From assembly GCF_003334305.1 (NCBI RefSeq), contig NZ_QOWS01000013.1: a stretch of 64,000 nucleotides of DNA; one strand, written 5' to 3'. The translations under genes were made by a program, and so were the position numbers. Positions 47,557 through 50,860 of this stretch are shown piece by piece. Each line of letters begins with the position of its first letter. Position 1 is the first letter of the stretch. Origin of the DNA: Escherichia coli (GTDB lineage: Bacteria > Pseudomonadota > Gammaproteobacteria > Enterobacterales > Enterobacteriaceae). The notes beneath the pieces were generated by a model. The model made no database searches and was not told the origin of the DNA. It saw nothing but the letters and a program-made list of their open reading frames with translations.

Positions 47557-48564
47557 CTATCCCAACAACTCTTCCTTAACATCCATCGCCAGCTCAAACG
47601 AATGCAGCCGCGCCTGGTGGTCGAAAATCTGCCCGTTGACCATAATCTCATCGGCGTCGGTTTCGCGCAGGATCGACTGCAAGCCATGACGCACTTTCGC
47701 TTTATCACCTACCAACGACATACTCAGCGCCTGCTGCACACCATACTGTTCGGACGGCGACCAGAACTGATCCATATTTTGAATCGGTGGCGGCAGTTGC
47801 CCGGTTTCGCCACGGCGCAACTTCACAAAGGCTTGCTGCATTGAGGTAAACAGAAACTCAGCGTCGCGGTTGCTATCGGCGGCGATAATATTGATGCACA
47901 CCATCGCGTATGGTTTTTCCAGTCGTGCCGACGGTTTGAAGTTGCTGCGATAAAGATGCAGCGCCTGGAACAACATATCCGGCGCGAAGTGTGAGGCAAA
48001 CGCGAACGGCAGACCAAGCTGCGCCGCCAGTTGCGCGCTGTAAAGGCTGGAGCCTAACAACCACACGGGGATTTTCTCGCCATAGCCTGGTACCGGGCGC
48101 ACATGCGGATTGGGATCGCGGGCGTCAAACCAGTCCACCAGCTCCGCGACATCGCGGGGGAAATTATCAATATCGCCGCTCATATGGCGACGCAGCGCCA
48201 TCATTGTCCGTTGGTCACTACCTGGCGCACGACCCAGCCCCAAATCGATTCGCCCCGGATAGAGTGTATTGAGCGTGCCGAACTGTTCGGCAATGACCAA
48301 CGGTGAGTGGTTAGGCAACATCACGCCGCCAGACCCCAGATGCAGCGTGGTGGTATTCGCCGCCAGATAGCCAATCAATACCGACGTGGCAGCACTGGCA
48401 ATGCCAGTCATATTGTGGTGTTCTGCCAGCCAGTAGCGATGATAGCCGCGCTTTTCAGCCAGACGGGCGAGATCGAGAGAGTGGGAGAATGCTTCTCGCG
48501 CTGAAGAACCTTCGGGAATGGGGGCCAGATCGAGTAGCGAAAACGCAATGGTTTTATCAGTCAT
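47557..48564 (-). CDS. yhbW: Luciferase-like flavin-dependent monooxygenase-family protein YhbW, 335 aa
   Basis: LLM-class oxidoreductase-like translation [19 protein letters not shown]. Confidence 0.9.
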
Positions 48565-48769
48565 AACAGCTCACTTTGTTACCGATTAATCTTTAATACT
48601 GCATTAAAGAGTAGTTAAAGTTGTTAACAAAGTGAGCTGTGCTCTAAATAATTCGAGTTGCAGGAAGGCGACAAGAGAGTGAATCCCCAGGAGCTTACAT
48701 AAGTAAGTGACTGGGGTGAACGAATGCAGATGCAGCACATGCAACTTGAAGTATGACGAGCATATTTAC

Positions 48770-49656: not shown

Positions 49657-50652
49657 TCACTGCCATTTACGGTGATACGCGCCAAGGGTGGTCTGCGTGC
49701 CTTCGGACATCGACCCGAGCGTCTCCATCCACGCGCTTTGCGGTATGAAGTTTTGCGGATCGGCCTTACAACGGTCGATAGCCTGACGCCAGACTTTCGC
49801 CACCTGGCTGACATACGCCGGGCTACGCTGGCGGCCTTCAATTTTCACCGAAGCAATATTCGCCGCCATTAACTCCGGCAGCAGTTCCAGGGTATTGAGA
49901 CTGGTTGGTTCTTCCAGCGCGTGATAGCGCTCGCCGTCCACCAGATAACGCCCTTTACATAGCGTCGGATAACCTGCGTTTTCGCCGTCCTGATAACGGT
50001 CGATCAGCACTTCGTTCAGGCGGGATTCCAGCCCCTGCGGCGTTTGTTGCCAGCGCACGAAACGGGCCGGAGAACACGCGCCTACGGTGTTGGGCGACTC
50101 ACCCGTCAGATACGACGACAGATAGCAACGACCTTCCGACATAATGCACAGGCTGCCGAAAGCAAAGACTTCCAGTGGTACAGGTGTGACCCGTGCCAGT
50201 TGTTTCACCTGATGAATCGACAACACGCGCGGCAGCACCACGCGGGCAACGTCAAAATGGCGATGATAAAAGTTAATCGCCTCTTCATTGGTCGCCGAAG
50301 CCTGCACCGATACGTGGCGCTCAATATGCGGATAACGCTCGGCGGCGTATTCCAGCATGGCGAGGTCGGCGAGGATCAGCGCGTCGGCACCCAGCTGCGC
50401 CGCCATATCCACGGCGCGCTGCCAACGGGCGTAACCGTCCGGATGCGCAAAAGTGTTAATCGCGATGTGAAGTTTGCGGCGATGTTGATGGACAAAACTC
50501 ACCGCTTCCTGCAATTTTTTCTCGGTAAAGTTAAGGCCGGCGAAGTGACGGGCATTGGTATCATCTTTTAGCCCGATATAAACAGCATCTGCGCCGTTTT
50601 CGATGGCCGCCTTAAGCGCCGGGAGATTTCCGGCAGGGCAGAGCAGCTCCAT
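49657..50652 (-). CDS. ubiU: U32-family protein UbiU (YhbU), O2-independent ubiquinone biosynthesis, 331 aa
   Basis: Start at the internal Met MELLCPAGNLPALKAAIENG. Confidence 0.88.
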   Translation of the reverse strand: MELLCPAGNLPALKAAIENGADAVYIGLKDDTNARHFAGLNFTEKKLQEAVSFVHQHRRKLHIAINTFAHPDGYARWQRAVDMAAQLGADALILADLAMLEYAAERYPHIERHVSVQASATNEEAINFYHRHFDVARVVLPRVLSIHQVKQLARVTPVPLEVFAFGSLCIMSEGRCYLSSYLTGESPNTVGACSPARFVRWQQTPQGLESRLNEVLIDRYQDGENAGYPTLCKGRYLVDGERYHALEEPTSLNTLELLPELMAANIASVKIEGRQRSPAYVSQVAKVWRQAIDRCKADPQNFIPQSAWMETLGSMSEGTQTTLGAYHRKWQ

Positions 50653-50860
50653 AATTTTTCCTGAAGGTTGCGCTATCAAAACGCAAAAATGTTAACGAAC
50701 TGGGATTTTAGTTAACCTTGCTGCGACAATTTTTGATTTAAGGCAGTTAAAGTTGTATTGGTGGTAGCAGCAATTTCATATGGAATTGTTGATTTATACC
50801 GCTATGTTATTTTTCTGATATGGCAAAATAGGATGATTGTTGAAACAGGGAGTAAAACTC

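Follow-up and report, generated by a model that had tools for sequence, protein, structure and literature searches.

The ubiV-yhbW gap and its inverted repeat

The element studied here lies in the gap between ubiV and yhbW, within the window (the whole 64-kb stretch of Escherichia coli DNA that was analyzed). yhbW (47557-48564, minus strand) is an open reading frame with the PF00296 domain, a luciferase-like, flavin-dependent and O2-using monooxygenase, and its start codon (48562-48564, minus strand) reads CAT on the plus strand. Upstream of it, on the same strand, are ubiV (yhbV; 879 nt, 48770 to about 49648), which is the last gene of the ubiUV operon, and ubiU (49657-50679); mtr converges on yhbW from the opposite side. 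The two transcription units are regulated differently. The ubiUV operon is anaerobic and activated by Fnr (PMC10470549), whereas published work places yhbW in the MarA/SoxS/Rob/RamA regulon: its expression is RamA-dependent in Salmonella, the Klebsiella yhbW promoter as a whole was shifted in gels by purified RamA and activated 6.9-fold in vitro, and E. coli YhbW rises 77-fold with vanillin, even without soxS, as the strongest-induced protein in one stress study. According to this literature, yhbW is thus co-regulated with the Mar/Sox/Rob regulon and not with Fnr.

The initial annotation had reported a perfect 16-bp inverted repeat whose proximal arm lies one nucleotide from the yhbW ATG, and both statements hold: the arms have 16 nt each, are 100% complementary and are separated by a 43-nt spacer. 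The proximal (3') arm (ACAGCTCACTTTGTTA, 48566-48581, minus strand) ends one base before the AUG, with the single base 48565 in between, and contains a Shine-Dalgarno-like GUGAG (48570-48574, minus strand). The distal arm, 5' in the sense RNA, is TAACAAAGTGAGCTGT (48625-48640, minus strand), and its native part (see below) is AGCTCACTTTGTTA (48625-48638). The AT-rich spacer (48582-48624, minus strand) would be the loop in a read-through RNA and, in DNA, the putative core promoter and start region of yhbW. In the 64-kb window, this is the only perfect inverted repeat of at least 14 nt with a spacer of at most 100 nt; under first-order Markov shuffling, 0.01 such repeats arise on average at 14 nt, and none of 16 nt appeared in 100 shuffles. 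Used as a query, the 86-nt element was found as a single copy in 5,424 of 5,426 E. coli genomes, with at least 95% identity in all but one of them. The inverted repeat is real and, as described below, conserved across enteric bacteria.

The gap measures 205 bp here, as it holds the hairpin plus a 125-bp ERIC (IRU) repeat, versus 80 bp in K-12, O157:H7 and many other strains, where it is nearly all hairpin. In MG1655 (NC_000913.3), the ubiV stop codon ends at 3303367, followed after 6 nt by the distal arm (3303374-3303387), the proximal arm (3303431-3303444) and the yhbW ATG (3303448-3303450). The ERIC repeat (48639-48763, no strand), located between the ubiV stop codon and the hairpin, has the features of its class, i.e., an imperfect palindrome of about 125 bp with a conserved core, multiple copies, and both filled and empty sites. 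The ERIC1R sequence matches exactly at 48679-48700 (minus strand) and the ERIC2 sequence, with one mismatch, at 48701-48722 (plus strand); we take these two to be the standard ERIC-PCR primers. Aligned E. coli strains have either filled or empty sites, a presence/absence polymorphism, and the ERIC junction is present in 1,423 of 5,426 complete E. coli genomes, the ERIC half of it being multi-copy.

This insertion affects how the length of the repeat is to be read. In strains without ERIC (K-12, O157:H7) the distal arm is TAACAAAGTGAGCT followed directly by AT. Since these empty-site strains read GTGAGCT and then AT, the native perfect pairing is only 14 bp, and the outer two pairs (48639-48640, GT) come from the ERIC end. 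The K-12 RNA still has a 17-bp stem including one G.U pair (AAUAGCUCACUUUGUUA/UAACAAAGUGAGCUGUU), which spans from 3 nt past the ubiV stop codon to the base preceding the yhbW AUG. The published MG1655 ubiV deletion primer reads gagctatttac at this site (PMC10470549), and therefore K-12 has no ERIC in the ubiV-yhbW gap and the window does not come from K-12; a literature search by arm sequence returned nothing except this primer. The likeness to ERIC/IRU repeats thus belongs to the neighbor at 48639-48763 and not to the hairpin which, unlike those repeats, is single-copy and older than the ERIC insertion.

Conservation and folding of the two arms

Orthologous loci were collected via the YhbW protein, and the arms were aligned for 19 enterobacterial taxa. 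Both arms are kept in about 19 taxa, and arm conservation, on which the initial annotation had made its functional reading depend, is strong. Besides E. coli, they are present in E. albertii, Salmonella, two Citrobacter species, Superficieibacter, three Enterobacter isolates, Cronobacter, Franconibacter, Atlantibacter, Entomohabitans, Pluralibacter, Buttiauxella, Mangrovibacter, 'Klebsiella' BIGb0407, Tenebrionibacter and one further assembly. Providencia, Brenneria and Erwinia have only the proximal AACAAAGTGAG, without the distal arm. The association with ubiV is not strict either: Providencia keeps AACAAAGTGAG with yhbW though ubiV is not upstream, and Tenebrionibacter retains the distal arm though ubiV is not directly upstream, so insulation from ubiUV is not the only role of this arm. 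Where both arms are kept, 43 to 166 nt lie between them. Across the 19 taxa, the distal arm hardly varies and is more constant than the strand with which it pairs; its inner half (TTTGTTA) is better conserved than the opposite strand, which appears as TAACAAA, TGACAAA, TAATTAA, GATAAAA and others. Thus, the distal arm is under a constraint beyond pairing.

For every species folded, both the minimum-energy and the centroid structure of the sense RNA are closed by a stem of the two arms: E. coli from this window (-28.7 kcal/mol, z -4.6), E. coli K-12 (-28.4 kcal/mol, z -5.6), Salmonella (-29.2 kcal/mol, z -3.7), Citrobacter (-33.0 kcal/mol, z -5.1), Pluralibacter (-22.5 kcal/mol, z -5.0) and Buttiauxella (-36.7 kcal/mol, z -6.1). 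Folding of the region upstream of yhbW, where the initial annotation had expected a long stem, thus gives a robust one that covers the GUGAG and the base beside the AUG, with an inner stem-loop predicted within the spacer (UCUUUAAU/AUUAAAGA).

The comparative evidence for pairing is of unequal strength. Over the 19 taxa, 84.5% of the alignment cells are paired, versus 32-49% after shifting the 3' partner by one to three columns; the observed percentage is reached by 45 of 500 shuffles. Double changes occur at three pairs only, in 6 cells versus 3.2 after shuffling; 9 of 500 shuffles give as many. So, of the two properties that the initial annotation had considered together, conservation is strong and covariation is weak, and underpowered because the arms hardly vary. 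One position within CUCAC/GUGAG is A-U in 14 taxa, G.U in four and G-C in one, with no broken pair, and the outermost native pair is A-U in five taxa, G-C in four and unpaired in nine. Within the 13-bp core, the non-Watson-Crick cells comprise 12 G.U versus 3 A.C, these events not being phylogenetically independent. Given that G.U is tolerated in the sense RNA and A.C in the antisense only, this bias favors a structure in the sense-strand RNA, for which we consider the evidence modest.

No known Rfam family of cis-regulatory RNAs matched at or above its gathering score. With permissive E-values at the locus, the hairpin was matched only by mir-1285 (25 bits versus a gathering score of 56, a chance match), and over the locus there was a weak ERIC-like match to V_AS5 (38.8 bits versus 96); searches with the leader insert from other genera gave no match.

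The end of ubiUV transcripts and probable masking of the yhbW ribosome site

In the SMRT-Cappable-seq data of Yan et al. 2018 (PMC6131387), the forward row NC_000913.3 3301438-3303449 (b3158|b3159) is labeled 'novelTTS'. A total of 162 reads begin at the ubiUV start site, of which 16 end at the listed 3' site, 53 further ones end within 50 bp downstream and 28 pass through, with a median read-through length of 76 nt (PMC6131387). In a further table of that study, the database operons b3158|b3159 and b3160 are joined as b3158|b3159|b3160, so some transcripts also extend into yhbW (PMC6131387). The ubiUV 3' end was thus already listed, unremarked, in a high-throughput table. In K-12 coordinates, position 3303449 falls on the U of the yhbW AUG (its counterpart here is 48563), 2-5 nt beyond the stem. 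Both arms are part of the transcripts that start at the upstream ubiUV promoter, and these either end just past the stem or read into yhbW; the hairpin marks the end of many ubiUV transcripts, and read-through is partial.

A 3' end just past the stem points to the hairpin as a non-canonical terminator or a structure that protects the 3' end. RNA 3' ends immediately downstream of a stem are also what an intrinsic terminator produces. However, a canonical one can be rejected, since the stem is AT-rich with 14-17 bp and a 43-nt structured interior, instead of short (about 5-14 bp) and GC-rich with a loop of 3-8 nt, and the tail GUUAUGAC has 3 U in 8 nt, where a U-tract has at least 5 in 8. A terminator scan called none at the hairpin. 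RNase III cleavage is an unlikely source of the 3' end because this end is placed beyond the stem rather than inside it. Only 16 of the 162 reads end at the exact site, and exonuclease trimming after Rho-dependent termination further downstream could explain it as well. The 3'-end data are therefore compatible with termination or with exonucleolytic trimming back to the hairpin.

The simplest reading of these data would be that the hairpin is purely an end-of-operon terminator or 3' stabilizer of ubiUV, its overlap with the yhbW ribosome site being a by-product of a compact gap with no regulatory consequence. The 3' end mapped just beyond the stem fits this reading, as do the A-rich run before the stem and the U residues after it (K-12), and the fact that in the more distant Erwinia and Brenneria, where the distal arm is missing, ubiV is followed by an ordinary GC-rich terminator. 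However, it leaves unexplained the conservation of AACAAAGTGAG with yhbW where ubiV is not upstream (Providencia), as well as the distal arm kept without an adjacent ubiV (Tenebrionibacter). Furthermore, REP and ERIC insertions have separated the hairpin from ubiV but not from yhbW, the gene with which it therefore travels; and since a read-through transcript including yhbW exists, the question of masking arises anyway. We consider a purely end-of-operon role unlikely, yet still a serious contender.

The masking itself was proposed in the initial annotation, in which the stem sequesters the ribosome site within the leader of the yhbW mRNA. The structural part of this proposal stands, as the stem covers the GUGAG and abuts the AUG; its location in the gene's own 5' untranslated region is doubtful, given the promoter-like module between the arms (see below). 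Energetically, opening positions -13 to +3 is predicted to cost 15-17 kcal/mol in the read-through RNA versus 3.4 kcal/mol in the predicted own mRNA of yhbW. Masking of the ribosome site thus probably holds only for the read-through RNA, as far as these folding models go.

A promoter-like module between the arms

In 18 of 18 taxa, a hexamer CAnTAT lies downstream of the distal arm (GCTCACTTTGTTAAC), at a distance of 23 nt, or 22 nt for the Buttiauxella-like group. For E. asburiae, a pattern search gave a distance of 11 due to an earlier CATTAT, and the alignment puts the GCAGTAT block at 23. In the window, the hexamer is CAGTAT (48596-48601, minus strand), -10-like and placed inside a conserved block (TTTAATGCAGTATTAAAG, 48591-48608, minus strand) whose sequence and distance to the distal arm are kept in 18 taxa. 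The sequence between the distal arm and the hexamer is free to vary. On the other side, hexamer and proximal arm are anywhere from 21 to 145 nt apart owing to several unrelated insertions, and all the insertions between the arms are found in this interval. The repeats, REP in Salmonella and ERIC in E. coli and E. albertii, are located immediately upstream of the distal arm and never in the module. A fixed spacing between arm and hexamer, indels only downstream and repeats only upstream point to an upstream site and a -10 element of a promoter followed by a transcribed leader; such an asymmetry would be predicted by a promoter with its leader, and not by a purely structural hairpin. In addition, since yhbW is regulated unlike ubiUV, it needs its own promoter, for which 80 bp are available in K-12. 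From this comparative pattern, the hairpin looks like it contains an activator-dependent yhbW promoter, with a predicted start at about 48589-48591, some 6-8 nt after the hexamer (about 3303422 in K-12).

A scan for the sigma-70 consensus found none on the yhbW strand, its sole match being a plus-strand TTAACA-17-AATAAT formed across the arm/ERIC junction, and CAGTAT as a -10 comes without a recognizable -35 hexamer. The putative -35 region is overlapped by a marbox-like site (48621-48640, minus strand) that consists of the distal arm and its flanks. By our own count, this 20-mer agrees at 11 of 14 positions with AYnGCACnnWnnRYYAAAYn, the older marbox consensus. The 15-mer is forward-oriented and, if CAGTAT is the -10 and the start is as predicted, centered at -41. 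Class II marboxes are centered between -36 and -55 (PMC12052159, PMC6900184). The 15-mer agrees with the marbox consensus GCANNWWNTGNNAAA at 7 of 10 positions (our count; consensus from PMC12052159); with three mismatches, GCTCACTTTGTTAAC fails the published filter of at most two mismatches to this consensus (PMC12052159), and because of that 'marbox' is only a candidate. On this comparison of motifs, we regard a marbox as the leading candidate for the identity of the distal arm, not an established one. Positions that the marbox leaves free are invariant where they are paired with AAGUGAG, as expected if they also pair with the arm over the ribosome site. yhbW is absent from the tables and supplementary lists of PMC12052159, and the published data sets searched for a yhbW start or further 3' ends (Kim 2012, Ettwiller 2016, Adams 2021, Middlemiss 2023 and the 2025 MarA paper, the files being possibly incomplete) contained no measured yhbW start and gave no match to yhbW or to a 33034... 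coordinate, where absence is not evidence of absence.

If yhbW has its own start between the arms, its mRNA would begin downstream of the distal arm, the situation that the initial annotation had named as incompatible with a stem in the yhbW leader. Conversely, yhbW mRNA may start upstream of the distal arm, so that the hairpin in its 5' untranslated region would be a cis-acting translational repressor or a sensor opened under certain conditions. This reading draws on the same stem, which covers the Shine-Dalgarno sequence, abuts the AUG and takes 15-17 kcal/mol to open, on the conserved arms and on the excess of G.U over A.C that favors the sense RNA. However, with only 6 nt between the ubiV stop codon and the distal arm in K-12, the promoter would need to be inside ubiV, and in Salmonella and ERIC-bearing E. 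coli the REP or ERIC repeat separates ubiV from the arm with the module intact. The fixed spacing between the distal arm and the hexamer, with indels only downstream, fits instead a promoter between the arms, and a sensor finds neither an Rfam match nor a conserved core resembling a ligand pocket. We thus consider such a leader repressor or sensor quite unlikely.

The other possibility raised in the initial annotation, a two-half-site operator, fares worse. As a DNA element, each arm would be bound by the same protein, either MarA/SoxS/Rob on inverted marboxes or a dimeric or looping repressor. Both arms are indeed near-invariant beyond the needs of pairing, and each is marbox-like on its own strand, the proximal copy lying at about +17, a repressing position. 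Nevertheless, the spacing of 43-166 nt puts the arms out of helical phase and led us to reject an operator of fixed geometry. The two copies are constrained differently, as drift is seen in the inner half of the proximal arm but not in the distal arm, and one-sided changes are biased to G.U (12 versus 3), which is meaningful for RNA only. Moreover, the MarA-family proteins bind asymmetric sites as monomers (PMC12052159). A two-site operator is therefore very unlikely. Finally, the perfect terminal inverted repeats around an AT-rich interior, beside an ERIC, might suggest a recombination site or what is left of a small mobile element, namely a MITE bounded by 16-bp terminal inverted repeats; either is hardly credible given that the element has a median of one place per genome (5,424 E. 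coli genomes), on which a dispersed repeat or MITE was rejected, occupies the orthologous position in many genera, and owes two of its 16 bp to the accident of the ERIC insertion.

A proposed dual-use element and its relation to known systems

We propose that the 75-nt element serves two uses in the intergenic region that separates the stress gene yhbW from the anaerobic ubiUV operon. As RNA, transcripts from the Fnr-dependent ubiUV promoter, which carry both arms, would form a hairpin (about -28 kcal/mol) reaching from a few bases past the ubiV stop codon (6 nt without ERIC) to the yhbW AUG. This hairpin would serve as a non-canonical terminator or a 3'-end protector of the ubiUV mRNA, the step seen in the K-12 reads. 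In the RNA that reads through, the 3' arm would lock the Shine-Dalgarno sequence and the start-codon context of yhbW, so that the O2-dependent monooxygenase would not be translated from an anaerobic message. As DNA, the distal arm, in the class II marbox position for MarA/SoxS/Rob/RamA, together with the CAnTAT 22-23 nt downstream, would be the activator-dependent promoter of yhbW. From the comparative anatomy of the locus, the yhbW mRNA made there would start between the arms, without the distal arm, and its ribosome site would be open. We lean slightly toward this dual-role explanation as a whole, the ubiUV end and masking in RNA together with the yhbW promoter in DNA. Its most specific form is that one sequence of 14-17 nt is read twice, as the activator site in DNA and as the anti-Shine-Dalgarno strand in RNA that silences yhbW and ends ubiUV transcripts, with a promoter nested in a terminator-like hairpin; this we put forward tentatively, the balance being somewhat against it.

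The RNA side of this explanation has a parallel in insertion sequences. Fold-back inhibition was reportedly described in IS10/Tn10 and IS50 by Davis, Simons and Kleckner (1985, Cell) and Kleckner (1990, Genetics). In IS10 and IS50, it protects the transposase gene from outside read-through. The shared logic is that the 3' arm lies over the ribosome-binding site, here with GUGAG in the arm, and that the gene's own promoter would lie between the arms, so that only foreign read-through transcripts form the inhibitory hairpin, as we propose for yhbW. Read-through from an upstream promoter is found here too, as reads from 3301438 pass the hairpin. Unlike IS10/IS50, the yhbW hairpin belongs to chromosomal metabolic and stress genes and not to a transposon, it also marks the 3' end of an upstream operon, and its 5' arm appears to double as an activator site; the internal start and the translational effect are predictions in the case of yhbW.

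With intrinsic terminators, REP-type stabilizers and Rho-trimmed ends, the element shares a stable stem-loop after the last stop codon, a 3' end a few nucleotides past it and partial read-through. It differs from them in being AT-rich (5 G-C in the 14 native pairs), with a 43-nt interior and no U-tract, and in that its 3' arm is the ribosome site of the next gene. The DNA side resembles class II marbox promoters (micF, fumC, lpxC P2) in its forward asymmetric site over a poor -35, at about -41 from the predicted start and at a fixed distance from the -10, and yhbW is likewise a member of the regulon with direct RamA activation in vitro; on the other hand, the match is only 7/10 (15-mer) or 11/14 (20-mer). 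Terminator-like hairpins, masking of ribosome sites and class II marbox promoters are thus all of known kinds, and the possible novelty is that all three are superposed on one 75-nt chromosomal element, with a rationale in the oxygen logic of the two genes.

If this explanation is true, the 80-bp ubiV-yhbW gap would pack an operon end, a promoter and a translational insulator, which would keep independent two adjacent units on the same strand with opposite oxygen logic (the Fnr-activated ubiUV and an O2-dependent monooxygenase). The O2-requiring enzyme would be made from its own stress promoter only, insulated from the transcription of an O2-independent pathway, and the fold-back trick of insertion sequences would be in use by ordinary chromosomal genes. 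The element also offers a defined position at which to seek the yhbW start site and marbox, and deletions or tags of ubiV that reach the hairpin may change yhbW expression.

Repeat elements between ubiV and the hairpin

In the window, a 125-bp ERIC/IRU repeat (48639-48763) has inserted after the stop codon of ubiV, ahead of the hairpin (the inverted repeat adjoining the yhbW start codon). The GT at its end lengthens the perfect arm by two pairs, from 14 to 16 bp. The element was found at this site in 1,423 of 5,426 complete E. coli genomes, K-12 and O157:H7 being among the strains without it. In the window strain, the 3' region of ubiUV, as transcribed, includes the ERIC, and the ERIC RNA is predicted by folding to form a long stem of its own. 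The arm/ERIC junction is also spanned by a sigma-70-like match on the plus strand (48624-48652; TTAACA, 17 nt, AATAAT; 10/12), which is limited to ERIC-bearing strains and is oriented away from yhbW, antisense into ubiV.

An ERIC element lies at the same site in E. albertii (locus L010, 2240-2430) and carries an additional internal segment of ~70 nt (GGCCTGAGGCCTCGCCC...); this resembles either a lengthened form of ERIC or a case of one repeat nested in another. In Salmonella enterica, REP-type palindromes (GCCGGGTGGCGGC... and GCCTGATAAGCGTAGCGCCATCAGGC; loci L086 and L087, about 1019-1120) fill this same position, after ubiV and before the distal arm. Repeats have thus landed more than once at the junction immediately preceding the distal arm, and the hairpin module remains unbroken.

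Affiliation and integrity of the arms

In Tenebrionibacter (L096, region 750-998), ubiV and yhbW are separated by a ccdA antitoxin gene and ~960 nt. Though ubiV is thus far off, a degenerate distal arm, ATCTCGCTTTGATAAC, is still present ~80 nt upstream of yhbW, which argues that the distal arm goes with yhbW and not with ubiV. In the window, a perfect 10-bp palindrome containing an HpaI site (TTGTTAACAA, 48621-48630) lies partly in the distal arm and partly in the spacer; it is retained in E. coli, Salmonella and Citrobacter and is not found in Buttiauxella-like taxa. In E. coli M19, an IS110-family insertion sequence (L003 and L100; NZ_CP010221.1, 4876443-4877462) has taken the place of the outer part of the proximal arm together with the start of yhbW (its 5' end), with the junction inside AGCTCAC|TTTGTTA; the annotation of that genome lists yhbW as a partial pseudogene without its N-terminus.

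A conserved insert ahead of the proximal arm

Downstream of the -10-like block and ahead of the proximal arm, Enterobacter, Cronobacter, Franconibacter, Atlantibacter and Entomohabitans carry a conserved insert of 60-85 nt, CAGCTTTCTGGC...GCCAGGCTGGAAGAAGACCTTCAATCTGATGAC..GCTG (L006, 2393-2480; L088, 1095-1180; also L011, L089, L091 and L094). Its predicted consensus structure is closed by the stem ACAGC/GCUGU and has a further stem inside, with a variable tip, and the insert had no match in Rfam; it may be an uncharacterized leader element of yhbW in these five genera. A mini-ORF of 4 codons (ATG ACC ATG CTG TAA) occurs in several copies, and the proximal arm opens with its stop codon.
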